Source: an uncultured archaeon
GTDB taxonomy: Archaea > Nanobdellota > Nanobdellia > Pacearchaeales > GW2011-AR1
Assembly (NCBI GenBank): GCA_903873955.1
Contig: CAIQQL010000116.1
Coordinates: forward strand, 1 to 44,490
Reading direction: 5' to 3'
Length of the DNA stretch: 44,490 nt
Every line of letters begins with the position of its first letter. Position 1 is the first letter of the stretch. Shown one piece after another: positions 11,543 to 28,751 of this stretch. Below the pieces are notes generated by a model. That model was not told the DNA's origin and did not search any database. It saw only the letters and a list, made by a program, of their open reading frames with translations. A program made the position numbers and the translations under genes.

Positions 11543-12157
11543 TCACCCAAAAAGAATTCTTGCGTCAACTACCCACGCATGTTCATCTGTCACCATCAAG
11601 GGATTGATGTCAAGTTCTGCAATGGAAGGATTGCCTGTTGCAAATGAGGAAAGTAAAAGAAGATTCTTTTCAATCAACTTCAGGGAATCTTTCTTGTTTT
11701 TTAACACAGCACTATAACGAAGGTCCAGGATCATCTCCTTGGCATCAGCCTTGGTGATGGGCAGGACCCTGAAAGAGACATCCTTCTCCTCTTCAACCTT
11801 GCTTCCGCCTTTGCCTAGCATGATGACCATACCGAACTCAGGTGTCTTGTTTATTCCAAGGATCAATTCATCACCCTTGACCATCTCCTGGACAGTCACT
11901 CCTTCATATCCCTCAAATTTCCTGAACTGCTCCACAACTTCTTTTGCCTGAGCGATAGTCTGGACGCCCAAAACCACACCTCCCTGCTTTTTTTTATGGA
12001 TTATCTTCTGGGAAAGGATCTTCATCGCCCAAGGAAATGACAACCGGTCCATCAACAGCGTTATCTCTTTTGATGCGACAATCACTGCACGTTTCACAAC
12101 ATCAAAACCTTCTTTTTCCAGAACATCCTCTGCCTCTTTTTCGGTAAACATGCGCAT
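11543..12157 (-). CDS. acdB: ADP-forming acetyl-CoA synthetase, beta (ATP-grasp) subunit
   Basis: 'MRMFTEKEAEDVLEKEGFDV', 'IIHKKKQGGVVLGV' and 'ELDINPLMV' match the ATP-grasp subunit of archaeal ACD. The track ORF extends to 12325, across the divergent gene. The ATG at 12157 fits the family N-terminus. Confidence 0.75.
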   Translation of the reverse strand: MRMFTEKEAEDVLEKEGFDVVKRAVIVASKEITLLMDRLSFPWAMKILSQKIIHKKKQGGVVLGVQTIAQAKEVVEQFRKFEGYEGVTVQEMVKGDELILGINKTPEFGMVIMLGKGGSKVEEEKDVSFRVLPITKADAKEMILDLRYSAVLKNKKDSLKLIEKNLLLLSSFATGNPSIAELDINPLMVTDEHAWVVDARILFG

Positions 12158-12203
12158 AATGCCGATACAAAATCTATTTATATATACCTTTCTAAAATTG
12201 ACC
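12158..12203. promoter_or_regulatory. 46-nt divergent intergenic region with an A/T-rich TATA-like core
   Basis: 'aatctatttatatatacctttc' lies between the head-to-head ACD subunit genes, about 20-28 nt from each start codon. Confidence 0.4.
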
Positions 12204-13484
12204 ATGAAAGAGTTCTTCAAACCTGAAAGTATAGCCGTCATCGGCGCTTCTGAGGAAGAGAAGAAAGTGGGAGGCATCCTAGTCAAGAAACTCAAGCAGT
12301 TCCCTGGAAAGCTCATCCCCATCAATCCTCACCATGCCTCCATCCAAGGCCTGAAAGCTTACGCTAGCATCCTCCAGTATCCCGAAAAGATAGACCTTGC
12401 GATCATTGCCGTGCCTTCCTTTGCAGTCACTTCCCTCCTTGAAGAATGCGGAAAGAAAAAGGTGCGCCAGGCAATCATCATCAGCGCAGGTTTTTCTGAA
12501 GATGGCCATCGTGAAGAGGAAGACAGGCTTGTCGCCCTGGCAAAAAGCCTGGACATACGCCTGCTAGGGCCTAATTGTTTCGGGGTATGCAATCCCTCCT
12601 ATCATCTTGATGCTACCTTCTCAGCATCATCACCCCAGGAAGGTTCGCTCGCATTCATCAGTCAAAGCGGGGCGCTCTGGAGTTTCATCTCAGATTTCTC
12701 CGTCGGTAAGTTTGGATTCTCTGGATTTGCCAGTTTAGGGAATATGGCAGACATAGAATTCGCAGATTGTATCGACTATTTTTCCCATGACAAAAAAACA
12801 AAGGCGATTGTCCTGTACATCGAGAAGCTTAAGGATGGAAAAAAGTTCCTGGAAGTCTGCCGTAAGTGCAAGAAACCCCTCTTTGCCGTAAAAGCCGGAA
12901 GCTCTGCAGTGGGCAGCAAAGCGGCAGTAAGCCATACAGGAAGTCTTGCAACGGATTTTGCAGTCTACCAAGGAGTATTCAAGCAAGCCAAGGTCACTTT
13001 ATGTGAAACACTTGAAGAGGCATTTAGTCTAGCCTCAAACAGGCAACTCCTTCCAGCAACAACAAAACGGTGGCCGTTAACACCTGGTGAAAAAGTCTTC
13101 CTTATCACCAATGCAGGAGGTGCTGGAGCTCTTGCTTCAGACTATCTCTCTAATGCCGGATTCAGGGTGGAAAAACCAGAAGACCTCAAAAATCCCTGGG
13201 ACATACTAGGAACCGCTTCAGCCAAAGAGTATGGTCTTGCCCTTGAACGCATCAGCAAGATGAAAGAATTTGACCGCATAGGAATCATCATAACTCCCCA
13301 AAGCATGACTGACCTGGAAGGCATTGCCCAAGAGATCATCAATGCAAGAAAAAATGGAGCCCCTCCACTTTTTGTGTTATTCCTTGGCGGAGCACACATG
13401 CATACCCTTAAAGAACGGCTGGAAAGAGCAGGTATTTTGTGTCATACCAGCCTAGCAGAGTTCAAACGGGCGATACAACCTTGA
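12204..13484 (+). CDS. acdA: ADP-forming acetyl-CoA synthetase, alpha (CoA-binding / succinyl-CoA-ligase-like) subunit
   Basis: 'FFKPESIAVIGASEEEKKVGG', 'LLGPNCFGV', 'AFISQSGAL' and the phosphohistidine segment 'SHTGSLA'. The ATG at 12204 follows the divergent promoter. Confidence 0.85.
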   Translation: MKEFFKPESIAVIGASEEEKKVGGILVKKLKQFPGKLIPINPHHASIQGLKAYASILQYPEKIDLAIIAVPSFAVTSLLEECGKKKVRQAIIISAGFSEDGHREEEDRLVALAKSLDIRLLGPNCFGVCNPSYHLDATFSASSPQEGSLAFISQSGALWSFISDFSVGKFGFSGFASLGNMADIEFADCIDYFSHDKKTKAIVLYIEKLKDGKKFLEVCRKCKKPLFAVKAGSSAVGSKAAVSHTGSLATDFAVYQGVFKQAKVTLCETLEEAFSLASNRQLLPATTKRWPLTPGEKVFLITNAGGAGALASDYLSNAGFRVEKPEDLKNPWDILGTASAKEYGLALERISKMKEFDRIGIIITPQSMTDLEGIAQEIINARKNGAPPLFVLFLGGAHMHTLKERLERAGILCHTSLAEFKRAIQP

Positions 13485-16643: not shown

Positions 16644-17144
16644 ATGGATTATAAGACATTTTTTAGCAGAAAAGCTGAAGAAGTAGCGCAGGATCTTTTA
16701 GGATATTTTGCCATACGCAAAAATGATTCAGGGATATTTGCCGCAGTAATAACCGAGACCGCTGCCTATCGCGGAGGCAAGATCACCCCTGCACGACAGG
16801 GTATGCTTTACGAGCCAGGCAGGATATTCCTTATGCCTAACCGAGGTCATCTCCTGCTCAATATTGCCTGTCAGGGCGATATGCCTGCCTGTGTCGAGCT
16901 CAGAGAAATCTCATTTCCTTTCGCACTTGCCTCCCCTCCCAATTTCCCCCGTCCGCGAAGAACCATAAATGGGGCAGGGACCCTCAGCAAATTCTTAGAA
17001 CTAGACGCTCAAATGGACAATACCCTTCTTGGAGATGCATTTTCAATCTCAGACACAAAGTACAAAACCGGAATGACGTCGAGAATCGATACAACTCTGG
17101 AAGATCAAGCCGATAACCTCATCGGAGTCTACCGCTTTTCATAG
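16644..17144 (+). CDS. 3-methyladenine DNA glycosylase (AAG/MPG, PF02245-like) fold protein, probably non-catalytic
   Basis: 'FFSRKAEEVAQDLLG', 'ITETAAYRGG', 'GMLYEPGRIFLM' and 'NIACQGDMPACVELREI' run parallel to human AAG 'FF..PAV.LARAFLG', 'VETEAYLG', 'GMFMKPGTLYVY' and 'NISSQGDGACVLLRALE' (recalled from memory). Confidence 0.65.
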   Translation: MDYKTFFSRKAEEVAQDLLGYFAIRKNDSGIFAAVITETAAYRGGKITPARQGMLYEPGRIFLMPNRGHLLLNIACQGDMPACVELREISFPFALASPPNFPRPRRTINGAGTLSKFLELDAQMDNTLLGDAFSISDTKYKTGMTSRIDTTLEDQADNLIGVYRFS

Positions 17145-17155
17145 GAGGTCTTGAG

Positions 17156-19498
17156 ATGTTCTATGACCTTCGTCCCTACCAGCTTCTAGGGATAAAAAAA
17201 ATTGTTGAAGAAAGGAGAATCCTCCTCGCTGATGACATGGGCCTGGGGAAAACGGCGCAGGCCATCTCAGCAAAACACCTTATCGACCAACAGAATGGCA
17301 GCCGTGCAACATTGGTGGTATGCCCCACAGCAGTCATCCCCCATTGGCATGAAGAGATTAGGGAATGGTATTATAAAGGTAGCAAAACAAAAGTTGCGAC
17401 GGTCGGTACAAGAAACTATGCACGAGAATGTCAAAAGGCGCAAGGTGCAGATTTTGTTGTGACCTCTTATCCAGTACTTTCCTTTTTAGGGGCAAATCCG
17501 GAAAGGATCGGAGCACTAAACGAGATAGGATTTACATACGGCATCCTAGATGAAGGTCATAACACACGCAATCCTGATTCTTTACGTAGCGGTGCTTCCC
17601 GAGAGCTCTTCCATCGCATCCCTTATCTCACCATCCTTTCCGGGACTCCCATCCCCAACACCCTTGTCGACATTTATGCCCAGCTCAATCTCCTCGATCC
17701 CCAGAACTTCCCCATCAATGATGAAGATCCTGACTCCATATTGCACGAATTCTATGAGATCATCCGAAAGAAACCCCATATGATCAGAGATGTCCTCCAT
17801 TCCCGAATGCTGAGACGAACAGCAGACAAGTATCTCAACAAAAAAATGCCTAAGCTTGAACAACTAACGGTTGACAATCCCCTTACTGGTGAGCATGAGG
17901 CAGTGTATCTTGAGCTGTACCAGAATGAGGAGATCCCTCCAGCGCAAAAACTTCAGGAGCTTGTAAAAGCATCGTTAGATCCCAACCTGGTCAATGGAAG
18001 ATATCTTTCTGAACCATTAAGACAAAGGCTCGGATCGATTGCATCTTGCACCTGGGGAAAGCTTGAAGAGATTGTCCACGATGCTGTAAGTAAAAATGGT
18101 GGGAAAGTGATTGGGTTCACGGACCTTAAACGCAAGGTCATTCCTGAACTTTTAAGACGTTTTTCCAGCTATGGCGCAATTGCAATCACCGGCGATACTA
18201 ATGGAGAAGCTCCCCATGGGGAATTGAGCGACAGGGAAAAAGCCAGAATTTCTTTCCAAAGAGACAGCGCAATCAGGGCTCTTTTTGCGACTACAGTCAT
18301 GGATGAAGGAGTAGATTTGACTGCAGGGACCCATCTCATCCATATCACCTTGCCCTATATGCCCGCGACACTAGACCAACGTATAAGACGTTCGCAAAGG
18401 GCGACTGCGGAAGTAGAAAAAGAGACCGTGACCTCCATAACCCTGAGAACCACCCTAAGCAATGGATTAGAGACCATAGATGAAGGGATCAAACTACTTC
18501 TGGATGATAAAAGAAGGATCATCAGATATATCATCGAGTCTCCAGAGAAGCTTACCTTAGATGACCTTAATCTCATCAAAAATGGACATCCTGAAGACTC
18601 GCCGAGCATTTCCGGTTTTCTGAGTGAGAAACGATATATGGACTGGCATCTGGCATCACTTCGGGGCATGGGTGGAGCGCGCATCCAAGAGCAATATGAA
18701 CAACGTCCCTTCTTAGCAGAAAATCTTGCAAGAGCATACATCAAGCATTGGGAAGGATTTTACGCAGGTAATACGGCCACACTCTCGGCGCAGCTCATCA
18801 AACAGGTACTCAAAGATAGAATGAATCCACGAGTCATTGACATCGCATCTGGGCCATTCTCACTTTCCCGCGTGCTTGGTTTCCCGGTCACCAACCTTGA
18901 CCTGAATAAGTATATGCTTGAAGCAGGAAAAATCCTTGAAAATGAAGGGAAGGTCCCACGAGGAAATATCGCTTATGAGGGACTTGCAGGAGAGCTCCCA
19001 TTCAGCGACAAGGAATTTGACCTGGTAAACTGCTCACTTGCACTTCATATGACCTCGCTTAATAGAGCTGAAGGAACGAATTATTCAGATAGAGAGACCG
19101 TCCTCAGGGAAGCAAACAGGGTGATTCCTGTGGGAGGATTCTATACCTTTGCGCTTCCCCATAGCGTCATCCACCGTCAGGATATGCCTACATTTAAAGA
19201 AGGGATCAAGAGGCTCGGATTTGAAGTCCTGCCACAAACAGGGCTCTATAAAGGATCAGGAGAATCTCCTTTCAAGGTATTTTTTGGGGCATTGCGCAAA
19301 GCAGATGAGCCTCAGAATGAACCTCTTCCTGAAGAACTTTTGACCTGGAGAATGGATGCAAGAATAGGCGGAAAAAGAATAGGAGTCACCAAGAGCCTTA
19401 GGAAAGGCCTTCCAAAGAAAAAGAAGAAAGAGCAGTTCGAAAAAATAGGCACCTTTGTCCAGATAGACAGCGGGATGGAGATTGGAGGAGCATCATGA
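17156..19498 (+). CDS. SNF2-family ATPase fused to a C-terminal class I SAM-dependent methyltransferase domain
   Basis: SNF2 motifs 'LADDMGLGKTAQAI' (I), 'ILDEGHNTRN' (II), 'LSGTPIPNTLVDIYAQLNLLDP' (III), 'TTVMDEGVDL' (V) and 'DQRIRRSQR' (VI). The C-terminal ~250 aa carry 'VIDIASGPFS' (SAM motif I-like), 'FDLVNCSLALHM' and 'VIPVGGFY'. Confidence 0.85.
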   Translation: MFYDLRPYQLLGIKKIVEERRILLADDMGLGKTAQAISAKHLIDQQNGSRATLVVCPTAVIPHWHEEIREWYYKGSKTKVATVGTRNYARECQKAQGADFVVTSYPVLSFLGANPERIGALNEIGFTYGILDEGHNTRNPDSLRSGASRELFHRIPYLTILSGTPIPNTLVDIYAQLNLLDPQNFPINDEDPDSILHEFYEIIRKKPHMIRDVLHSRMLRRTADKYLNKKMPKLEQLTVDNPLTGEHEAVYLELYQNEEIPPAQKLQELVKASLDPNLVNGRYLSEPLRQRLGSIASCTWGKLEEIVHDAVSKNGGKVIGFTDLKRKVIPELLRRFSSYGAIAITGDTNGEAPHGELSDREKARISFQRDSAIRALFATTVMDEGVDLTAGTHLIHITLPYMPATLDQRIRRSQRATAEVEKETVTSITLRTTLSNGLETIDEGIKLLLDDKRRIIRYIIESPEKLTLDDLNLIKNGHPEDSPSISGFLSEKRYMDWHLASLRGMGGARIQEQYEQRPFLAENLARAYIKHWEGFYAGNTATLSAQLIKQVLKDRMNPRVIDIASGPFSLSRVLGFPVTNLDLNKYMLEAGKILENEGKVPRGNIAYEGLAGELPFSDKEFDLVNCSLALHMTSLNRAEGTNYSDRETVLREANRVIPVGGFYTFALPHSVIHRQDMPTFKEGIKRLGFEVLPQTGLYKGSGESPFKVFFGALRKADEPQNEPLPEELLTWRMDARIGGKRIGVTKSLRKGLPKKKKKEQFEKIGTFVQIDSGMEIGGAS

Positions 19499-20652
19499 AT
19501 CAAGAACAGGAGATGAGAACAAGAGCCCTCGAACTTTTAGGACAGAATGCAAACTCAGATGAAGTCATGAGAAAGACCGGCCTTAGTAAAATGCAAGTCG
19601 CCGCCTTGAAGGCGCATATCACTATGGGGACCTATTCCAAGAGGCCAGTCACGCAACCAACTCCTTCTCCTTCGCCCAGACCCTCTCTAGCGCGAGAAGA
19701 TGAAAGATATGATCTTGCAAGAAGACTTGCTGAGGAAGGAAGACAGAATGCATATATCCGCGCACAGACCGGACTTGGAAAAATGCAAGTCGCAGGATTT
19801 CTTGCAGCCAGCTCAAGAAAGAAAAGAAATCTTGAATCTAAGGCTGGAGCCACATCCTTGCATCAAACTGACCTGCTAACAACACCTGAGATTCAACCCG
19901 AAACGGATAATCGTCAGTCTATAACCAAACAAGAGGCAATTGAACTCATGACTACAAAAGGAGTTGTCCCAGCCAAGCTAGCCTATGCATACCGTATTGA
20001 TGGCGTCGCATGTTCACCTGAGCAAGTCACTGCCTGGAGGGCGCATATCACTATGGGGACCTATGCCAAGCATCCGGAGCTGCTCATTGGAAATAACCAT
20101 AAAAACGGTGGAAATGGAAAAACGATCCGCAAAAAAGAACAATTAGTTGACTTTATCGTAAAAAGCCCTGAAGTACGAGACCTGTCCGTCCTTGCACTTT
20201 GCCTTGGCGAAGATGGAAGCGAAATAGAAGGTGCGCTGCTTGAAATCTATCAAGGAAGGTTCAAGAGTCGCGAGGAATTACATTCCCTTCTTGAAGAAGC
20301 AAAGGACGATGTCGAAAGATTACTGAATGAGGGAGTGATAAGCTTAGGATATTTTATCGGCAGATACTCTTTGAGAGATAGGACGATGGCCCCTATCTTC
20401 CTTGGAGGGACCGCCTCAAATATCCCCATTGAACGAGCAACCCCTTCCCTCGAAAGGACGTTAATGAGAGTTGCAAGCGGGATCTATGACCCTCAGTTCA
20501 ATGAAGACCCTATAAAAGCCATCAAAGACTTACAAGCAAAAGCAGGGGAAGGGAAAAATCTTGCTAAAAGGATATATGAGACGTTATCCAAAGGATATCA
20601 AGAGGCCCTGGCACTCAAGGAAACCTTGAAGAGCTTTGCCCTTCGCACATAA
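19495..20652 (+). CDS. Protein with three HTH-like modules ('..MQVAALKAHITMGTY') and an uncharacterised C-terminal domain
   Basis: Its start overlaps the SNF2 gene stop (ATGA). The modules are 'GLSKMQVAALKAHITMGTYSK', 'GLGKMQVAGFLAASSRKK' and 'SPEQVTAWRAHITMGTYAK'. Confidence 0.7.
   Translation: MNQEQEMRTRALELLGQNANSDEVMRKTGLSKMQVAALKAHITMGTYSKRPVTQPTPSPSPRPSLAREDERYDLARRLAEEGRQNAYIRAQTGLGKMQVAGFLAASSRKKRNLESKAGATSLHQTDLLTTPEIQPETDNRQSITKQEAIELMTTKGVVPAKLAYAYRIDGVACSPEQVTAWRAHITMGTYAKHPELLIGNNHKNGGNGKTIRKKEQLVDFIVKSPEVRDLSVLALCLGEDGSEIEGALLEIYQGRFKSREELHSLLEEAKDDVERLLNEGVISLGYFIGRYSLRDRTMAPIFLGGTASNIPIERATPSLERTLMRVASGIYDPQFNEDPIKAIKDLQAKAGEGKNLAKRIYETLSKGYQEALALKETLKSFALRT
19611..20064 (+). 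repeat. Exact 25-nt intragenic direct repeat encoding 'AHITMGTY'
   Basis: 'ggcgcatatcactatggggacctat' occurs at 19611..19635 and at 20040..20064. Confidence 0.85.
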
Positions 20653-20678: not shown

Positions 20679-21776
20679 TCATTTCCAATAATCCCTTAAA
20701 AGCCCATCTCTAGAATCCTTTTTCGTTTCATCTTCAAGGCCATCTCCAGATTCCTCTTCAGGTTCTTTTTTTGTCCCATCCCAAAATACCGTCTCCCAAA
20801 CCCCTTTGAACTTTATCGCCCTTGCAAGCATGACACATTTTTCATCGAGATGTAGATTACGGAGTCTTCGTGTACTGCTGTCCACAACAAGCACGTTATT
20901 GTCAAGCTTTTCAGCATACTCTGTTGCAAACTGCCTTGAGGGTAGAGGGAAGGGGTTCATCTCCAGAGGAACAGTATTATCTTTTCCATTCCAGTACTTT
21001 CTTATCACCGCAAGATACGCCGCAATCTCATGGGGTCCGAACGTAAATACATCTGACCCTCTTCTCGATTGTTGGTCCTCATAACGAAGATTGTGCAGGA
21101 AGGTCATCCTCAGAGGCTCTTTTCCATCCTCATACTGGCTTTTTAGACCCCAGATTATCGCTTTTTTTTCTTTAGAGTCAGTCAATGGAACCGATTGTAA
21201 AAAAAGTCCATAACGCTGCTTGCGCTTTGTACGTGACGGGACTTTGCATAATAGTTTTGCACCCTCACTTTGGACTATGTTTGCTTCCACATAACGGTCA
21301 TCGACGGTAATCTTACCAGCTACTTGTGATGCATAAGCATAGATCTTGGTCCCCTCAATGACCGCGTCAAAGGGAACCTTTCTCCACCGCCTGTCTTTTC
21401 CTTGCACAGGAAACCAACGTAAACCAATCATCCAGATCTGTTCTTCCTTTAGGTCCCTTAATGCAACTTCTAAACTTTGCATACGATTAATCAGCGGAGT
21501 ATATGGATACTCATACGCTGCTTGTTGCCCTTGAGGTTGGTTCAATGGGAGATACCATCCATGACGATAATGCTTCCTTGAAGCGAGAGTGTCCGGTGTG
21601 TTTCTTCTAAGAAATTCAAGAGGGATGATGGGTGTCCTGACTTCAATGGCGTCAGTGTCTGGGTTAAGATCATAGATCTTCGCGACGAGATTATGGGGGG
21701 TGTATGCTGCCTTGAGTTTCAAGGTCTCTTGAATTTCCTCTGGTTCTCGTTTCTGGAAAAACGTTTTCTTTTCCAT
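20679..21776 (-). CDS. Hypothetical protein (365 aa), orphan
   Basis: A long ORF. The track start at 21797 is TTG. The ATG at 21776 ('MEKKTFFQK') sits about 25 nt downstream of the minus-strand 'ttttttatatt'. It has an acidic C-terminal tail. I recognise no family. Confidence 0.6.
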   Translation of the reverse strand: MEKKTFFQKREPEEIQETLKLKAAYTPHNLVAKIYDLNPDTDAIEVRTPIIPLEFLRRNTPDTLASRKHYRHGWYLPLNQPQGQQAAYEYPYTPLINRMQSLEVALRDLKEEQIWMIGLRWFPVQGKDRRWRKVPFDAVIEGTKIYAYASQVAGKITVDDRYVEANIVQSEGAKLLCKVPSRTKRKQRYGLFLQSVPLTDSKEKKAIIWGLKSQYEDGKEPLRMTFLHNLRYEDQQSRRGSDVFTFGPHEIAAYLAVIRKYWNGKDNTVPLEMNPFPLPSRQFATEYAEKLDNNVLVVDSSTRRLRNLHLDEKCVMLARAIKFKGVWETVFWDGTKKEPEEESGDGLEDETKKDSRDGLLRDYWK

Positions 21777-21897
21777 CCCCTCTTTAAGAAGAAACAATAT
21801 AAAAAACTATCTTTTGTTACCACTTTCTTGTTAATCTAAGCCGTATCCTGGAAATAAACTCGGCAATATTTATTAAGAAGACAGACTTATTTTTTTG

Positions 21898-22668
21898 ATG
21901 AGTATACGGTTTGGACCTGCTGGATTGGGTCCAGTAAACACTGCAAAAGAGATGCTTGAAAAACTGCATGGGCAAGGTCTCCAAGCCTGCGAGATCGCTT
22001 TCACCTATGGAGTCTATATCAAACCCGTAGATGCTGAAGAGATAGGAAAGATTGCGAAGAGCCTGGACATCGAGCTCAGCATCCACGCCCCGTATTTTGT
22101 CAATCTCAATTCAGATGATCCTAAGAAAATAGTCGCAACAAAAAAACGTATCCTTGATTGTTGCGAGATTGGAGAGAAACTAGGCGCAAAGATCGTCGTG
22201 TTCCATCCCGGCTATTACGGGAAGATGAAGGATGAGACTTATGACAACATCAAAAAAGGAATCCTTGAACTGCTAGAGGTCATTGAGAAGAAAGGATGGA
22301 AGATAAAAATCGCGCCTGAGACCATGGGAAAGATCAATGTCTTTGGAAGCATCCAGGAAATCTCCCGTCTTGCAAAGGAAACCGGATGTGCCTTCTGCAT
22401 CGACTTCGCCCATGTCCTCGCAAGGGATAAATCCGTCGATTATGCGCTCATTGAAAAGTTGTTTCCGCAAAAACAATGGCATGTCCATTTTTCAGGGATC
22501 ATCTATGGAGATAAAGGAGAAAAAGAGCATCGAATCACGGAGGAACAGGAATGGCGAGAACTCCTTAGCCATCTTCCCAAAGACAAGGAGATCCGCATCA
22601 TCAATGAGTCTCCCACGATGATTGAAGACAGCATTATGGGGCTTAAGATTTCTCAATCACTACCGTAG
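21898..22668 (+). CDS. nfo: Endonuclease IV-type AP endonuclease (xylose-isomerase-like TIM barrel)
   Basis: The pattern of metal-ligand segments is 'SIHAPY', 'VVFHPG', 'APETMG', 'CIDFAHV', 'HVHFSG' and 'INESP', in the order expected for the Nfo family. The ATG at 21898 follows the TTG at 21895. Confidence 0.65.
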   Translation: MSIRFGPAGLGPVNTAKEMLEKLHGQGLQACEIAFTYGVYIKPVDAEEIGKIAKSLDIELSIHAPYFVNLNSDDPKKIVATKKRILDCCEIGEKLGAKIVVFHPGYYGKMKDETYDNIKKGILELLEVIEKKGWKIKIAPETMGKINVFGSIQEISRLAKETGCAFCIDFAHVLARDKSVDYALIEKLFPQKQWHVHFSGIIYGDKGEKEHRITEEQEWRELLSHLPKDKEIRIINESPTMIEDSIMGLKISQSLP

Positions 22669-24407
22669 TGTGATGGTGCCAGGTTCCTCCTGTATGTTCC
22701 CATGGTCAGATGTGCTTTAAAAGCAGCTAATTGACGAGTGGAGATGTTATATGTTTGCACAATCTCTCCTTCGGAAAAAGACCCGTCAGCAATCAATTGC
22801 CCAAGCTCATGCTTTTCTTCCCTGGTTAATCTGCGCGTAGGATTAGTAGCAGGTGAGTTTCCTGCTTCGCGCCCATTCAATTCAGCTAGCGGATTTTCAA
22901 CTGGAGCTGAATCTTTTTGCAAGATAGCTCTCTCGAGAATACCTTCCTGGCAGTTATGTGAAGGGGTCCATCCTTGCCAGCGCCTCAGCCCTGCTTTAAT
23001 GCCTCCAAGTTCTCTTCCTGTAAGATGATACATCTCGAGAATCTCCGCGTCCGTCCTCCCGCTTTCAAATTCTGCACGAATTACTTCTGAAAGAGTTTGT
23101 GGCACGAGATCCTTACGGTCTGCCTTGACATATTCCAGCTCAGTCCTTAAAACCTGATTGTAACTATTGAACTTCCTATAAAACGCATCGCTGTTGCCCA
23201 TAAGATATACTCCTGGCATCCTCACTGGATCTTCATCGCTTTCTTCCTCATTTTTCAGCCGTTCCTGGTGCAGAGTGGCTGCAACCTTTCCACTAAGGAG
23301 GACAATATCGGGTTGAGGGATTTGACCATCAACCGGCGTCCGATCATTCAAGATTAGTCGCTGATAAACACAGTGGTGGTTTTCCCATCCAAAGCTGAGG
23401 TCTCTTTCTACACCTGCAAAAAAGTCAGGACGTTGCTGTAGCAGGATAAAGTCATAGAGCATCGGACTTCCGTTGTCTGAAACGTACCTTCCTTTTTCAT
23501 AGTCTGAGATAAAATAGGGTCGTTTCAGCGTCCCATTCTGCATGTATGTCAATATGCTGTTTCGCATCCCTTCATCACCTGGAAACTCCCCATCAAGAAA
23601 TATGGAAAGAAGAGTGTCAATTGCTCCTTGGGCAAAGGCAAAGAATTCCTTATGTGCTAAAGGATTTTTGATGACATCTTCCACTGGAACGTCATAATTC
23701 GACTGTTTATAGAATTCCCTGAAATACGGCGCAGCAATCAACTGCTGATAGGATTCCAGAGGGGTGTTTGATCCGGTTAAATAACGCAGTTTAAGACTGA
23801 TCATCTTGTCACGAATGGTGCCTAAATCCTCGGTGTCTTTGAGAAAATCGACAAATCTCATGTCGTTAAGGACACGCGCAGCTATCTTCTCATCTTGCCT
23901 TTCCAAAAATTTAAGCATCTCCCCTCCCTGGGTCAGAACGAAGGTATCAAGCACGTACTTACTCTGTCTCTTTTCCCCTTCACGAGATCCGTAAAAATTC
24001 GTACCGAGAACATAACGAGGACCAACCTTGTCACTGCGGGCAATCTCTCCTATGAGCAGGTCTTCTGCTGCCCCAAATTGCGACTGAAAGTCCAGGTTTA
24101 CAATATCAAAATGTTCCCGAGTCTGAGCAAAAAAGTCACGTGCATCACCTTCATAGAGATTTATACCAAGATTCTGCGCCCTGATCTGCGCCGCAACCTC
24201 AGGATTTCGTTCGATTCCATACACCCGATCCCTGCGAATTCCAAAACGATCATAGACGTCTTTAACTTCTAATGCCTCTTGTGCCGGAAAGCATACGACG
24301 CGCAAGCTTCGTCTTCGTTTGACATCAGGGTATGTCCTTTCAAGAAAGTGCAGGAACTCTTTACGATAGAGCCTTTTTGATTCAAAATCATAACTTGCCT
24401 TTTGCAT
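22653..24407 (-). CDS. Paralogue A: methyltransferase-like N-domain + two C-terminal HTH-like modules
   Basis: The ATG at 24407 ('MQKASYDF') matches the conserved paralogue N-terminus. Motifs 'LRVVCFPAQ', 'GIERNPE', 'FDIVNLDF' and 'YVSDNGSPMLYDF'. A degenerate module 'AEILEMYHLTGRELGGIKAGLRRW' precedes the terminal 'STRQLAAFKAHLTMGTYRR'. Confidence 0.7.
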   Translation of the reverse strand: MQKASYDFESKRLYRKEFLHFLERTYPDVKRRRSLRVVCFPAQEALEVKDVYDRFGIRRDRVYGIERNPEVAAQIRAQNLGINLYEGDARDFFAQTREHFDIVNLDFQSQFGAAEDLLIGEIARSDKVGPRYVLGTNFYGSREGEKRQSKYVLDTFVLTQGGEMLKFLERQDEKIAARVLNDMRFVDFLKDTEDLGTIRDKMISLKLRYLTGSNTPLESYQQLIAAPYFREFYKQSNYDVPVEDVIKNPLAHKEFFAFAQGAIDTLLSIFLDGEFPGDEGMRNSILTYMQNGTLKRPYFISDYEKGRYVSDNGSPMLYDFILLQQRPDFFAGVERDLSFGWENHHCVYQRLILNDRTPVDGQIPQPDIVLLSGKVAATLHQERLKNEEESDEDPVRMPGVYLMGNSDAFYRKFNSYNQVLRTELEYVKADRKDLVPQTLSEVIRAEFESGRTDAEILEMYHLTGRELGGIKAGLRRWQGWTPSHNCQEGILERAILQKDSAPVENPLAELNGREAGNSPATNPTRRLTREEKHELGQLIADGSFSEGEIVQTYNISTRQLAAFKAHLTMGTYRRNLAPSHYGSD

Positions 24408-25899
24408 CTTTCCCTCCAGTATATGTGCCCATGGTGTTATGTGCTTTGATGGCAGAAAGCTGTCCGCGGGTAATACTATAAGCGTCAAGAATTTCAGATT
24501 CATTGAAAGCAGGATCGCGCAACATCTGGGCAATCTCATATTTTTCTCTTTTTCCAAGCTTTCTTGGTGTGTGTCGCGAGATTATATCCCCCTCAGTCCC
24601 TTCTGAAGGAGACAGTCCATCTACTCTTTGCGCACTTGGCGATACAAGCAATCCTGGTCGTTCTGGAATGAGCTCAATGCGAGGGGCAAGAGGAAGGCGC
24701 ACAACCTGTTCCATATACTGATGAAGATATTCCATCCTTTTCACTAGTCTCTGTAGAGACCACCCTAGAGGATTTATCTTGACGTAGCAGTCATTGTTGG
24801 CATCAGCCTGTTTGAAGGAGAAAATGTCTGACAACCTCATTTTTATCCCTTCAGGGACCTGGGAAAAGCTGAAGAGATCCATCAGCATAGGGCATCCGCT
24901 ATTGCTCGTGTATTTGTATCGCTCAAAGGCGTTGTAATGATAGGACTTTTGCATTATTGAACCTTGTAAATGAAGCAAGGATCTTGCAAGGTCCGCAGGG
25001 ACCAATTGACTTAATTTATGGACCAATTGTGCATAACGGGCAGTGTAGTATCCTTGTTCATAGACCACCGGATCCTCCGAAAACTTCACATTGGCTCTGT
25101 CTGAAAGGCCGTTTAGTTTCCTAAGGAAATCCAGATCCCGTGTCGCAGGCAAATCATTTTTTACTCCTTGTATCACCGTTTCTTTATAGGGCTCATCAGA
25201 GAACATGCTTTTCCCCATAGGTCTGTTGATTGTCCCGCCCATAAATATGGTGACAAGCTCAGTCGTTATTCCATCACGAAGCCCTTCAAGATTCCCTTCC
25301 TTGCCCTGCCTATCCAACATCTGTTCAAGTTCAAGAAGTCTCTCAGCCCTAAACCGTTCGGTAGAAAAGTCATTATCGGGCCATGCTTCCATGAATTTTG
25401 CCTGACGCTGCTGATGCAAGAGCCTATTTGCAAGCAGCTTTTGCATACTCTCGCTTTCCCTTCTTCCAGAGTAGACAGTCGCAATGATTCCTTTGGGAGC
25501 AAGCAGTTGGCGTGAGGCGATATATTCGAGGGTACATGCTTCAGTGATTGTCTGCTGGCCTGTATAGTCTAGGCTGATGATATCAAACGGGGCTGGATTT
25601 GCGTGCAAAAAATACTGGTCCGCTTCTCTGCAGATTACTTCAATACCTAAGTTGGCCCTGCGCAACCGTTCAGCCTTTTCAGGGTCACGCTCGAGGCTTG
25701 TGACATGATTACGGGGTATACCTAAGACGTCACAAATCTCCTTGACTTCTATGCCTGCTTCCTCGACTGTTTCTGCTCCAGCAAAACAGAGATATCTCAG
25801 ATCCTGGACCCGTCTTTTCGGATCTTTGTTTTTCTCAGAAAAGACCATCTGTTTCATCCTTGCAAGATGCTTTGCTGGATCATTGTAGGATTTAGACAT
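24388..25899 (-). CDS. Paralogue B: methyltransferase-like N-domain + C-terminal HTH-like module
   Basis: ATG at 25899 ('MSKSYNDP'). Motifs 'LRYLCFAGA', 'SLERDPE', 'FDIISLDY', 'YTSNSGCPMLMDL' and the terminal 'TRGQLSAIKAHNTMGTYTG'. Confidence 0.7.
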   Translation of the reverse strand: MSKSYNDPAKHLARMKQMVFSEKNKDPKRRVQDLRYLCFAGAETVEEAGIEVKEICDVLGIPRNHVTSLERDPEKAERLRRANLGIEVICREADQYFLHANPAPFDIISLDYTGQQTITEACTLEYIASRQLLAPKGIIATVYSGRRESESMQKLLANRLLHQQRQAKFMEAWPDNDFSTERFRAERLLELEQMLDRQGKEGNLEGLRDGITTELVTIFMGGTINRPMGKSMFSDEPYKETVIQGVKNDLPATRDLDFLRKLNGLSDRANVKFSEDPVVYEQGYYTARYAQLVHKLSQLVPADLARSLLHLQGSIMQKSYHYNAFERYKYTSNSGCPMLMDLFSFSQVPEGIKMRLSDIFSFKQADANNDCYVKINPLGWSLQRLVKRMEYLHQYMEQVVRLPLAPRIELIPERPGLLVSPSAQRVDGLSPSEGTEGDIISRHTPRKLGKREKYEIAQMLRDPAFNESEILDAYSITRGQLSAIKAHNTMGTYTGGKDAKGKL

Positions 25900-27343
25900 G
25901 CTGCACCCCTCTGTCACGGTTGATCTTCACCCAGGCAGCAACGGAAGAGATCTTTCTTCTTTCCACTTCCCCATTAAAAAGCATGGCAATATCCTCAATT
26001 GTTGCCCCGCCCGCACGAAGCTCACGGATGACTTGTTTTTCGTCTTCTTGCAAATCCCGTTTTTTTCCAGCGAGAGGCATGGATTGGCCTGAAGTGCCCT
26101 CCAAAGGCAAAGGTCCCCCTTGGACAACCTCCAGATAGATCTTTTCTGATGCACTTGACCCTAGAAATATCCTTTTTTGCTGCTTCCCCAACTCATGGAC
26201 TTTCGTCTTTTTTTCAAAAAGGTTCAACCCCTGCTCCTTCACTTCTGCACGCAGCCTGTCACGAGACTCTTTCCGGTTTACCTCTGGCAGCACATAAATC
26301 GCAGTTTCATGCTTCCTCACCAGGAAGGAGCTTTCAAGCCTTTGTACAATACGAGCATGATTGTCAAGATAGAAGATGTCAAATAACATCGGCGTCCCGC
26401 TGTTGCTTACGTAACCGTACGATTCCAGGGACTCGACAAGATACGGCTTTTGATGGGCTATTAAAAATGCAGAAGCCAAGGGGAAGTCAAGACCTGCGTT
26501 GATCAGCGCTTCCCAGCGGGAAATATCTTCATTGATCCTAAACATCCTATGACGCATGACGTTCTCTTCCCTGTTCCTGGTAAACTTGATAGAGATGCAG
26601 GCTTTGTCCCTTTCATCACCAACTCTGGAAACCACATCAAGAAAATGCGCAGAGGACTCATCAAACCCGCCAAAACAGTCATAGAACTCCCTGCCCAGAT
26701 TTGCCCGACCCAGAGTGAAGGTGCCTGTAAGGATAGACCGTAAAACCTGTTCGCGGTCTTCTCTTAAATCGAACGATTGATTGAGCTGCGCAACTCTTGT
26801 CAGGGCAGGCTCATAATTCGTCAAGAGTTCCTGTAAAGACACTCCTCCTTTTACCATTGCACTATTGCATTGCAGCAGATCCTGCGCATCCTCATTTTCT
26901 CTTCGGGCCATGAAATTTGTCGCAATAATCCCTCGATTATCCAATAAGCCATCACTTGCGATAAGCTCCAACGCATAATGGCGCTCGGGAGAGAAGTAGG
27001 ATGTGTAGTCCAGATTAAAGACCGTCCACTTTCGTCCCTTTGACCGTGCAGTCTTCAAGACCTCCAGGTCTTTGGCGTGGATCAGCTCTATCCCTAAACC
27101 TGCAGCACACAGGCGATCATACTTTTCACGGTCCAGCTCCACTCCAGTGATATTTTCCCGAGGTATTCCTAAAGCATCGTAATATGCAAGTTCCAGTGCA
27201 ACTTCGCCATCCTTTTGGGCTCCGGGAAAACAAAATATCCGCACATCCTTCGGCTTTCGATAGGAGAGAATGTAATCTCTAATCCCGTTCTGCAGTTTTA
27301 CTCGGGTGATATCCTTTACTGTGTCATTATAACTTTTATCCAT
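25892..27343 (-). CDS. Paralogue C: methyltransferase-like N-domain + degenerate C-terminal HTH-like module
   Basis: ATG at 27343 ('MDKSYNDT'). Motifs 'VRIFCFPGA', 'GVELDRE', 'WTVFNLDY', 'YVSNSGTPMLFDI' and the terminal 'IEDIAMLFNGEVERRKISSVAAWVKINRDRG'. Confidence 0.7.
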   Translation of the reverse strand: MDKSYNDTVKDITRVKLQNGIRDYILSYRKPKDVRIFCFPGAQKDGEVALELAYYDALGIPRENITGVELDREKYDRLCAAGLGIELIHAKDLEVLKTARSKGRKWTVFNLDYTSYFSPERHYALELIASDGLLDNRGIIATNFMARRENEDAQDLLQCNSAMVKGGVSLQELLTNYEPALTRVAQLNQSFDLREDREQVLRSILTGTFTLGRANLGREFYDCFGGFDESSAHFLDVVSRVGDERDKACISIKFTRNREENVMRHRMFRINEDISRWEALINAGLDFPLASAFLIAHQKPYLVESLESYGYVSNSGTPMLFDIFYLDNHARIVQRLESSFLVRKHETAIYVLPEVNRKESRDRLRAEVKEQGLNLFEKKTKVHELGKQQKRIFLGSSASEKIYLEVVQGGPLPLEGTSGQSMPLAGKKRDLQEDEKQVIRELRAGGATIEDIAMLFNGEVERRKISSVAAWVKINRDRGVQHV

Positions 27344-28751
27344 GTTCTTCCCTCCGTCGATATGTCCCCATTGTCTGATGTGCCTTGAATGCTGCCAATT
27401 GCATCTTGGTAAACCCAGTATAACACTGTGCAATCTCTGCAGGAGTGAATCCTGAACTAAGCAGGTCAAGTACCTGGGCCTTGGAGAGTGTCTCCTTATT
27501 TCCAGATCCGGGCTGAGGAGATAAACCTGAAAGAGTATGATCTGCCGGGGAACCTAGGACCTTATTTTCTCCATAGGCCGAACCGAGATTCTCACGTGGC
27601 GCAAGGCTATTCCCGAAACATCTGTAACGGCAATTACAAAAGTCAGAAATAAGCCCAATGGCCTCTTTTTCAAGAGAGGGATGATACTTGCTTACTTTCC
27701 AGTCCAAGTTCTGAGGATCGATGGAAAGGCGGAAGGTCCTGGAAAGGTCCAGATGCTTGACATAGTTGATATCGACCAGCATAGCCGAACCCTTGTCCCC
27801 TATATAGCGAAGCCTTCTCTGATCAGCAACAAAATAGGACTGCAGGGGAGTGTAATAGAGCAACTCTGCTGCCAGCGTCAAGGTCTGCAGGCTGACATTG
27901 CCCTCTGGAAAAAGGTCGACATTTATGGCTTCACGTAATTTATCCTTCAGAAAAGGCATGGCATAAAAAGTATCGATTGTCTCCTGACGGGAAGGAAGTC
28001 CTCCACTGCCCAATTGATAATTGTCCTTTGCCCCTCCGATAATATCCTGTCCAACAAAATACGTGCGTGCAATCTTTGCAGTCTCATTACCAGGAGCCCT
28101 TCTGAGCTGCTCATCTTGCCACACCAGGAAAGCATCAAGAAGATCGCGGTCTTTCAAAAAATAAGGATGAATCTGCCGGTTGTGAATTCCATCAATCAAG
28201 ATTGAGCAGATATTGCGGGAAAGCAAATTTGAACGGTCCTTGATCGTACCCGCGCCTCCCTCTTCCTCCTCGCAGAAATCCCTATGTGCCGCCTCAAACC
28301 AGGACTTGGCATACCCGCTTTCCCTCATTCCCAAGTACCAGGTGGCCAATATCCCTTTCTCACCCAACAGCTGTCTTCCCGCAATTGTTCGCAATGCATT
28401 GCGCTGTTCAAACCCAAACGGAGCAAAGCCATCAATGTTGATGATGTCAAAAGTCTCGGAAGTGGTCTCAAGAAATTCATCAATAGAAACAGGCTTTGGA
28501 GGAAGCCGTACTCCCCAGCCCTGGGACTGTATTCGCCCATAGGTTTGAGGGTCATTTTCCAGACAGAGAATATTACCGCGGGGAACCCCCAGACGATCCC
28601 ATACCTGCTCAAGCTCCAGGGATTGATGCCCGAGAAGCGTCAAGACACGTAGGCCTTTTCTTTGCGAAGGCTTAGGATAGAGATTGGTCGTAAATCCTGC
28701 CAGGATCCCTCTTGCCAATGTTTTCGTGCTATAATTATAGGTCTCTTTCAT
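27336..28751 (-). CDS. Paralogue D: methyltransferase-like N-domain + C-terminal HTH-like module
   Basis: ATG at 28751 ('MKETYNYS'). Motifs 'LRVLTLLGH', 'CLENDPQ', 'FDIINIDGFAPFG' (reminiscent of Trm1 'IDLDPFGSP'), 'YIGDKGSAMLVDI' and the terminal 'TKMQLAAFKAHQTMGTYRR'. Confidence 0.7.
   Translation of the reverse strand: MKETYNYSTKTLARGILAGFTTNLYPKPSQRKGLRVLTLLGHQSLELEQVWDRLGVPRGNILCLENDPQTYGRIQSQGWGVRLPPKPVSIDEFLETTSETFDIINIDGFAPFGFEQRNALRTIAGRQLLGEKGILATWYLGMRESGYAKSWFEAAHRDFCEEEEGGAGTIKDRSNLLSRNICSILIDGIHNRQIHPYFLKDRDLLDAFLVWQDEQLRRAPGNETAKIARTYFVGQDIIGGAKDNYQLGSGGLPSRQETIDTFYAMPFLKDKLREAINVDLFPEGNVSLQTLTLAAELLYYTPLQSYFVADQRRLRYIGDKGSAMLVDINYVKHLDLSRTFRLSIDPQNLDWKVSKYHPSLEKEAIGLISDFCNCRYRCFGNSLAPRENLGSAYGENKVLGSPADHTLSGLSPQPGSGNKETLSKAQVLDLLSSGFTPAEIAQCYTGFTKMQLAAFKAHQTMGTYRRREEHG

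Follow-up and report, generated by a model that had tools for sequence, protein, structure and literature searches.

What does an SNF2-family motor that carries its own methyltransferase modify, and with which partners does it act? The question is raised by a gene, here called SNF2-MT, in a 44,490-nucleotide stretch of contig CAIQQL010000116.1 (the window, analysed at its full length) from an uncultured archaeon, whose genome (G000) counts 1.23 Mb in 154 contigs and is 89% complete. The initial annotation, made from the letters alone, described the gene as an unusual fusion of a complete SNF2 motor with a C-terminal class I S-adenosylmethionine (SAM) methyltransferase of small-molecule/rRNA type. 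Comparison of the locus with its homologues indicates that this fusion belongs to a three-part module of DPANN archaea (Nanoarchaeota/Woesearchaeota), made up of an MPG-fold protein, SNF2-MT itself and one to three proteins with helix-turn-helix (HTH) arrays and a C-terminal domain termed C_ct. This gene context, a conserved three-part module, is the main new finding. The parts of the operon are laid out in the window as follows, lengths and positions within proteins being given in amino acids (aa):

16644..17144, + strand: AAG/MPG-fold protein of 166 aa, first gene of the operon, a divergent paralogue without the catalytic Glu (from Pfam, PDB and motif).
17144..17148, + strand: GGAGG Shine-Dalgarno-like element, overlapping the upstream stop codon and lying 7 nucleotides (nt) before the ATG at 17156 (from the sequence).
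17156..18565, + strand: SNF2-family ATPase core, aa 1-470 of SNF2-MT (from Pfam SNF2-rel_dom and Helicase_C, PDB 1z63 and invariant motor motifs).
18593..19360, + strand: predicted Rrp8/nucleomethylin-like class I SAM methyltransferase (MT) domain, aa 480-735 including an N-terminal helical extension (from a model and from structural and sequence matches).
19364..19495, + strand: disordered stretch (model pLDDT <50, aa 737-759) including a K-rich tail, then the motif F-x-x-[IL]-D-[ST]-G-x-E (from the model).
19495..20652, + strand: partner protein of 385 aa, with N-terminal HTH-like modules (KAHxTMGTY) and the all-helical C-terminal domain C_ct (from alignment A7 and a model).
20107-20649, + strand: C_ct domain, aa 205-385 of the 385-aa partner (from A7, 19 sequences).

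The fusion gene is an uninterrupted open reading frame (ORF) at 17156..19498 on the + strand, with an ATG start and a product of 780 aa. In Pfam, SNF2-rel_dom was matched at aa 21-260 (E 3.4e-35) and Helicase_C at aa 307-416 (E 4e-10). The closest solved-structure sequence for the motor is 1z63, the SNF2/Rad54 core of Sulfolobus (5e-21 over aa 4-464), and the PDB sequence matches also include ERCC6 and Rad26. An alignment of 43 of the ~70 homologues (A1) was thinned by hand, fragments and some similar-scoring rows being dropped with no choice based on features. In this alignment, K32 of motif I, D132/E133 of the DExH motif, G163/T164 of motif III and Q408/R412/R415 of motif VI are invariant. 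Both SNF2_N and Helicase_C are present and motifs I, II (DEGH), III and VI are intact, in agreement with the complete motor first described, and the strings then quoted (VIDIASGPFS, FDLVNCSLALHM, VIPVGGFY and DEGH, together with the K-rich tail KGLPKKKKKEQ) are all found in the translation. The motor is thus predicted to be an intact ATPase of the SNF2 family, akin to the archaeal SSO1653/Rad54 core. A separate plain SNF2 protein of 602 aa is encoded elsewhere in the same genome.

The C-terminal part matches Methyltransf_11 at aa 562-663 (E 7.6e-9, 36.5 bits against a cut-off of 21.2) and Ubie_methyltran at aa 550-696 (E 1.1e-7) in Pfam, with a sub-cut-off match to Methyltransf_25 (E 7.9e-4). 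Residues D562/G566/P567 of motif I, the acidic post-I residue D582, R646 and E652 are invariant in A1. An AlphaFold2 model was built from an alignment of the C-terminal 310 aa of the fusion (A2, 11 sequences from the loci, used also as a search profile); it reached a predicted local distance difference test (pLDDT) value of 84.4 and a predicted template modelling (pTM) score of 0.84. In the model, helices are followed by a Rossmann sheet and, beyond the disorder at model residues 267-289, by a short ordered element at the C-terminus. With VIA-align, it was superposed on nucleomethylin/RRP8 (2zfu_A) at Z 21.5, with a root-mean-square deviation of 2.8 Å over 208 of 212 residues and 21% identity, ahead of UbiG (Z 16.9) and Bud23/WBSCR22 (Z ~16), so that Rrp8/nucleomethylin is the closest fold over the whole domain. 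All 1000 of the 1000 rescored chains were class I methyltransferase-type matches with Z>=8, and Foldseek likewise returned class I methyltransferases only (2zfu, TMt 0.73).

Class I SAM methyltransferases are marked by a seven-stranded Rossmann-type fold, by a motif I rich in Gly and by an acidic residue that follows strand 2, all of them found here, and structure prediction thereby yields the SAM-binding fold on which the initial annotation had staked its claim. The 2zfu_A alignment spans model residues 10-264, that is aa 480-734 of SNF2-MT, and a PDB sequence profile search with the domain lists 2zfu at 3.4e-9. Because of this alignment and profile match, the MT domain can be regarded as Rrp8-like over its full length. 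The ~100-aa "linker" formerly placed between motor and methyltransferase was misjudged, as it corresponds to the conserved N-terminal helical part of the domain, where G506, Y528 and N539 are also invariant in A1. On the model, the C-terminal domain is accordingly a predicted Rrp8/nucleomethylin-like class I SAM methyltransferase.

No match to N6_Mtase (PF02384) was obtained in SNF2-MT at E<=0.01 in Pfam, the motif (D/N/S)PP(Y/F/W) does not occur in its translation, where the sole PP is that of EIPPAQ, and C5 DNA_methylase is not among its Pfam matches. The enzyme therefore bears neither the domain and catalytic motif of gamma-class N6-adenine DNA methyltransferases, from which it had rightly been set apart, nor the C5-cytosine DNA methyltransferase that is fused to SNF2 in Dnmt5-type proteins. 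Behind the disordered residues of the model come short strands, and the C-terminal motif F-x-x-[IL]-D-[ST]-G-x-E is kept across variants of 780 to 1270 aa.

A word-indexed search retrieved ~70 proteins that have this architecture, are 700-810 aa long and show 31-64% identity. When 1.84 billion representatives were searched with the A2 profile, 26,779 matches were obtained at E<=1e-3, i.e. generic methyltransferases, 795 at <=1e-10 and 142 at <=1e-30 (clusters at 50% identity). The fusion presented as unusual is thus real, but it is not rare, since at least 142 such clusters are found at E<=1e-30. Among the best 150 matches, the domain is nearly always C-terminal in proteins of 700-1650 aa. Methyltransf_11 is present in 44 of the top 52 family representatives, Helicase_C in 43, SNF2-rel_dom in 37 and Methyltransf_8 (PF05148) in 18 at E<=0.001, the rows without a helicase match including short entries of 267-380 aa. 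The four readable organism names are all DPANN (Candidatus Nanoarchaeia, Nanoarchaeota and, twice, Candidatus Woesearchaeota), and the other source names are generic ('SNF2-related protein', 'helicase/UbiE methylase'). Judging from these matches, the SNF2-MT fusion is conserved and forms a family of considerable size, for which only generic annotations exist. As to the reservation that the architecture might prove a common and already characterised family, the family is indeed sizeable, yet neither a characterised member nor any published work on the fusion or its gene module was found in the literature searched.

An Atlas look-alike search of SNF2-MT gave a top cluster of 1498 members (score 0.94; PF05148 in 99%, Helicase_C in 91%), for which the recorded taxa, 'Bacteria 56%, commonest Uroviricota', come from 122 records and serve as a lead only. 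Searched with SNF2-MT alone, genome contigs yielded no locus, and with A1 they yielded generic bacterial SNF2 genes only, which were not used. No fusion was found in viral contigs (IMG/VR), either with a closer alignment (A3) or with A1, which retrieved 26 loci matching in the SNF2 part only; ORFs were measured in 18 of these, 15 being of 457-687 aa and 3 of >4000 aa. By tblastn, 0 of 544 phage records cover >=80% of SNF2-MT, and the MT domain alone matched one 'phage' record with a stand-alone Methyltransf_11 and, weakly, one plasmid, without any fusion. That 'phage' record (L134; MT836925.1, 'Bacteriophage sp.', unverified) carries a Tag glycosylase, RtcB, the stand-alone Methyltransf_11 and an amino-acid permease, and looks like cellular rather than phage DNA.

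These homologues bear on the trivial explanation that the fusion is an artefact of assembly or gene calling, or a decaying gene, for which no point in favour was found. The frame is uninterrupted, the catalytic residues are invariant in both halves, and the architecture recurs in the ~70 homologues from independent sources, the copies in genomes G009, G379 and others being without internal stops. The likelihood of an artefact or of decay is thus practically nil, both being ruled out by the homologues, the intact genome copies and the invariant residues.

The operon was compared across the window, 10 further genome loci and 16 metagenome loci, the latter gathered with A3. ORFs were called by script, and partners were sought with domain probes from the window proteins, by phmmer and then hmmsearch. 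In the window, a TATA-like element (TTTAAATA) lies ~25 nt upstream of the MPG-like gene, and the stop of the fusion gene overlaps the start of the next gene as ATGA. The MPG-like protein matches Pur_DNA_glyco at 3.9e-13 (49.6 bits against a cut-off of 27), which assigns it the fold, and human AAG chains at 2.4e-5 in PDB; on the NCBIfam model 3mg, it scores 45 bits against a cut-off of 116. A canonical MPG is encoded on another contig of the same genome (C49), with 225 bits against 48.5 bits for the operon copy.

An MPG-like gene adjoins SNF2-MT in 9 of the 11 genome loci, seven of these copies having been found by profile search and those of L107 and L109 by family links and an alignment (A4). 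It also does so in 8 of the 16 metagenome loci; of those in which none was detected, five are truncated at a contig end, two carry the near-identical 1260-aa variant and in one the sequence upstream is present but contains no MPG-like gene. By hhalign, the MPG-like profile found no match among the small neighbours in L108 and L105. The association spans enzyme variants of 780, ~1010, ~1035 and 1269 aa, whose mutual identity is just 23-31%. A predicted complex of SNF2-MT with the MPG-like protein gave an ipSAE of 0.01 in two runs, which counts neither way.

The operon-linked glycosylase-fold proteins are altered at their catalytic site. In A4, which aligns 15 operon-linked copies with 3 canonical archaeal MPGs, the canonical ETEAY/EVEAY is changed to ETAAY in the window copy and to EAGAY, QTGAY, MASAY etc. 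in other operon copies. The second Glu of this motif is present in all 3 canonical MPGs and lost in 14 of the 15 operon-linked copies, being replaced by Gly, Ala, Ser, Arg or Leu; the sole copy that keeps it is that of L110 (EVEAW). Residue numbers of AAG were mapped via an alignment to 3qi5, the chain of which was taken to start at residue 80. The window copy thus lacks the equivalent of the catalytic Glu125 (in ETEAY) of the human enzyme. According to the available text of PMC12347255, the attacking water is deprotonated by Glu125 of human AAG and coordinated by Arg182, and the base is oriented by Tyr127 and Tyr159. Most MPG-like copies of the 780-aa clade retain the counterparts of Tyr127, Arg182 and Asn169; the loop with His136 is deleted, and the position of the intercalating Tyr is mostly Arg. 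This Tyr is presumably Tyr162 of AAG. The simplest reading of these changes is that the MPG-like protein may still engage a flipped purine and would no longer hydrolyse the glycosidic bond; a changed mechanism instead of a loss is possible.

The third part of the module consists of the HTH-array/C_ct proteins. In 15 of the 16 loci with an enzyme of the 780-aa type, SNF2-MT is flanked by one to three genes that encode the C_ct domain (~175 aa). In their N-terminal parts, the encoded proteins hold multiple HTH_23/HTH_28 repeats (Pfam) with a period of 56-63 aa, arrays that are replaced in the window's genus by two or three HTH-like modules with KAHxTMGTY. The model of C_ct is all-helical (pLDDT 85.8), and no fold match was found for it in the PDB (Foldseek best E 0.5; VIA wide best Z 7.0, to helical designs) nor any usable match in the Atlas. 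By hhalign, the C_ct profile did not match the partners of 386 and 347 aa that accompany the ~1000-aa variants. Downstream of the enzyme in genome G005 lies a protein with HNH_repeat DNA-binding repeats and a weak C_ct match.

The arrays are exchanged between operons. In L104 (genome G379) and L124, SNF2-MT is 95% identical and the MPG-like protein 91% identical, one HTH-array gene (86% identity) has changed sides relative to the enzyme, and the remaining arrays are ~44% alike. HTH-array genes have thus been moved or replaced between near-identical operons.

Multi-HTH DNA binders, in several paralogues, are the constant partners of SNF2-MT, and this would also suit a remodeller joined to a protein methyltransferase, in which the motor moves or evicts HTH-array proteins or archaeal chromatin proteins and the MT domain methylates Lys, Arg or a terminus. 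Seven-beta-strand methyltransferases of this type include protein methyltransferases, and nucleomethylin, the top structural match of the MT domain, is chromatin-associated in eukaryotes. Protein methylation, however, would leave the glycosylase-fold protein, whose divergence follows that of the enzyme across all variants, without a role. Among the closest folds, those whose substrate is known act on nucleobases or small molecules, and a core chromatin function fits neither patchy spread nor cassette swapping. We consider a protein target unlikely, if deserving of attention.

The spread of the module is indeed patchy. The MT domain was matched in 10 of 401 genomes sampled across the class and in 8 of the 281 high-quality ones. 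In the window's genus, the fusion occurs in 5 of 17 genomes and in four lengths, i.e. 780 aa (G000 and G009), 707 aa (G005), 1037 aa (G007) and 841 aa (G012). Genomes G009 and G007 carry different operons directly beside the same block of fructose-bisphosphate aldolase, PfkB kinase and 2-hydroxyacid dehydrogenase genes. At this block, the 780-aa enzyme of G009 is accompanied by MPG-like, C_ct and paralogue-array genes (the last described below), and the 1037-aa enzyme of G007 by three other partners without a known family. Patchiness, the replacement of one variant by another at a single chromosomal spot and the cassette exchange of DNA-binding subunits are features of accessory modules for modification or defence and not of core chromatin machinery, so that in its distribution the module resembles an accessory system of DNA marking or a defence-like one.

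The same distribution weighs on an RNA-directed function, in which a Rrp8-like rRNA/tRNA base methyltransferase (m1A-type) would be served by a motor that remodels a ribonucleoprotein or an RNA-DNA hybrid. Of the structural neighbours whose substrate is known, those at the top are rRNA methyltransferases (nucleomethylin/Rrp8 and Bud23/WBSCR22), and yeast Rrp8 makes m1A645 of 25S rRNA, as stated in the accessible part of 10.1101/313874. This activity tells what the nearest relatives do and not what the MT domain of SNF2-MT does. SNF2 motors are, however, duplex-DNA translocases (PMC1616948, in the portion available, and established knowledge), the partners carry HTH arrays or are folded like a DNA glycosylase, and a presence in 10 of 401 genomes of the class, with several variants within a single genus, is unlike a conserved rRNA modification. 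An RNA target is therefore given little likelihood.

The module does not coincide with a known defence system. The partner genes have no match to PADLOC models (eight window neighbours searched), PHROGs or NCBIfam models, apart from the sub-cut-off 3mg match of the MPG-like protein. The motor scores 74 on the NCBIfam model DpdE (cut-off 500), 70 on DrmD (cut-off 610) and 56 on ZorD (cut-off 1500). Neither an equivalog-level helicase nor the partner genes that would define DISARM, Zorya, Dpd or BREX were found. SNF2-MT thus belongs neither to DISARM or BREX nor to the type ISP enzymes; PADLOC and NCBIfam match its generic SNF2 part only, far under the cut-offs.

Taken together, the reading that we prefer, tentatively and at somewhat less than an even chance, is that the module is an accessory, ATP-coupled DNA base-methylation system, targeted by HTH proteins and equipped with a glycosylase-derived reader. 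The HTH-array proteins would choose DNA sites and dock to the enzyme through C_ct, acting as exchangeable specificity subunits. The SNF2 motor would bind duplex DNA and use ATP to track along it or to distort it locally. Such a distortion would expose a base, which the Rrp8-like domain would methylate, likely on a purine ring nitrogen because of the chemistry of its nearest structural relatives. The MPG-like partner, no longer cutting, would bind the flipped and possibly methylated purine and so read or gate the mark. It had been suggested from the fusion alone that DNA or a DNA-bound protein is modified in a translocation-coupled way, an idea that is plausible and that the gene context strengthens. 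A more specific form of this proposal is rather doubtful, namely that SNF2-MT represents a new class that writes a non-canonical methylpurine (ring nitrogen, e.g. N1-adenine), read by the disarmed glycosylase and targeted by HTH cassettes; as the HTH-repeat cassettes would set the sequence specificity, such a system could be retargeted by swapping them.

Several observations weigh against DNA base methylation by this module. The DNA base is a putative methyl acceptor, and the roles of "reader" and "specificity subunit" are suggested by anatomy. The nearest structural relatives (Rrp8/nucleomethylin and Bud23) methylate rRNA and not DNA, at 15-21% identity to the MT domain, and UbiG and other small-molecule enzymes stand merely ~5 Z units under nucleomethylin. 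On PF05148 (Methyltransf_8), SNF2-MT reaches 18 bits and not the gathering cut-off of 27, and this model is not very specific because it has matches in 12 of 14 control genomes. Next to the 707-aa form (G005) and the 841-aa form (G012), no MPG-like partner was found. Pairwise divergences of the MPG-like protein and SNF2-MT are strongly correlated (Mantel r 0.92, with 0 of 5000 permutations as high; 0.875, with 2 of 5000 as high, in the 780-aa clade alone), a correlation that reflects shared history and not contact, because linked and co-inherited genes would show the same. Finally, the core operon holds no recognisable nuclease or other effector and no partner that matches PADLOC.

Downstream of the operon, the window carries three further features that may bear on the module:

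20679..21797, - strand: 372-aa protein without a family (no Pfam, PADLOC, PHROGs or NCBIfam match).
21895..22668, + strand: endonuclease IV (EndoIV)-like TIM-barrel protein, AP_endonuc_2 (Pfam 1.5e-25; NCBIfam nfo 7.3e-11, sub-cut-off).
22653..28751, - strand: four tandem paralogues of ~470-585 aa each once likely starts are corrected, with a Rossmann-like N-terminus (CFPG ... ERD ... NLDY/F) and an invariant motif of RYVSDxGSPML type.

The EndoIV-like gene stands 2.4 kb downstream of the fusion gene. In L130/L131, two metagenome contigs that are nearly identical, a homologue (12604-13428) is located ~3.4 kb away from the 1260-aa variant of SNF2-MT. These genes bring in a further explanation, a response to alkylation damage. 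The motor would then scan or clear stalled complexes as CSB/Rad26 does, with the MPG-like protein as a sensor of alkylated purines and EndoIV processing the sites, the MT domain being regulatory or SAM-sensing. The MPG fold of the partner and the presence of ERCC6 and Rad26 among the PDB sequence matches of the motor are in line with it. Such a sensor would, however, be without its catalytic Glu in 14 of 15 copies, with a canonical MPG elsewhere in the genome, and the EndoIV-like gene is not in the other operon loci, so that its link to the module is uncertain. Moreover, the invariant SAM-binding residues point to catalysis, and swappable HTH-array genes are unexpected for a repair function. 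A damage response thus appears improbable.

A homologue of the 372-aa protein stands directly beside the operon in one metagenome locus (L126, 2-487; 4e-73). The tandem paralogues, which have no match in any family library scanned, usually end in the KAHxTMGTY HTH-like module that they have in common with the 385-aa partner. This array accompanies only the operons of G000, G009 (five to six copies) and L117 (one copy). The longest-ORF calls in the window (22653-24557, 24388-25917, 25892-27469 and 27336-28751) overlap by 26-170 nt, and an alignment of the paralogues (A8) suggests internal starts, e.g. Met51 of the 634-aa ORF. The ~1010-aa and ~1035-aa enzyme variants (L109/L110/L112 and L107/L111, respectively) sit in conserved operons of their own, with partners of ~750-810, 500, 386 and 200 aa in the former and of ~543, 350 and 220 aa in the latter, which are without a family match except for a distant MPG-like small protein.

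Elsewhere in the window, an ADP-forming acyl-CoA synthetase is split into an ATP-grasp_5 part (11543-12325, - strand) and a CoA-binding/ligase part (12150-13484, + strand) that overlap by ~175 nt on opposite strands, one start being probably mis-called. A tRNA scan of the window found none. Among sequencing runs, three from freshwater sediment contain at least a third of the sampled words of the window, and no RNA run was listed among those that contain it. On a 3.2-kb contig of the same genome (C60; L132, 3-557), a strong PF05148 methyltransferase (156 bits) is cut by the contig end, beside a 334-aa ORF (1583-2587) that is zinc-finger/Toprim primase-like by eye, no search having been made; this contig may be a small mobile element or a contamination of the bin.

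Motor-coupled methyltransferases are already known from restriction-modification (RM) and defence systems, with N6-adenine (N6A) or N4-cytosine (N4C) chemistry, and from eukaryotic Dnmt5, with C5 chemistry. What is new here is the combination of an SNF2 motor with an rRNA-type (Rrp8-like) methylase, a disarmed glycosylase-fold partner and modular HTH arrays. If DNA is the true target, the module would represent a new DNA-methylation chemistry in archaea, a natural case of a repair glycosylase turned into a binder of modified bases and possibly a modular DNA-targeting scheme, and it would give a function to a recurrent, so far anonymous DPANN gene set. Because DPANN genomes are small, each accessory module that they retain is informative. 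If the target is protein or RNA, the family would still be the first of such SNF2 fusions to be described along with its partners.

Among known systems, type ISP and types I and III RM, DISARM (DrmD and DrmMI), BREX and P1 DarB-like systems resemble the module in pairing a translocase or helicase with a methyltransferase and in their patchy, island-like spread, type I also having exchangeable specificity subunits. Their methylases are N6A or N4C enzymes with (D/N/S)PP(Y/F), whereas SNF2-MT has neither this motif nor N6_Mtase, and the module, unlike those systems, has no nuclease, DUF1998, PLD or PglZ partner. SSO1653 of Sulfolobus solfataricus (PDB 1z63) is an archaeal minimal SNF2 core like the motor of SNF2-MT, without a methyltransferase domain. 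Rrp8/nucleomethylin has the same fold as the MT domain but is a stand-alone nucleolar enzyme acting on rRNA, whereas in SNF2-MT the domain shares its chain with a DNA motor and its operon with DNA-binding partners. AAG/MPG (PF02245) has its fold in common with the MPG-like partner, which differs by the lost Glu, the missing His136 loop and the Tyr-to-Arg change. In Dnmt5, a C5-cytosine maintenance methylase of fungi and protists, an SNF2 ATPase and a methyltransferase are joined in one chain as in SNF2-MT, and, in the text available of 10.1101/2020.01.05.895227, the ATPase step is needed for DNA methylation within this one polypeptide, independently of nucleosomes. Dnmt5 differs in being a eukaryotic C5-DNA methyltransferase and in having no glycosylase-fold or HTH-array partners. 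It is regarded as the best working analogue of SNF2-MT, the likeness being one of mechanism only between fusions that are not homologous.

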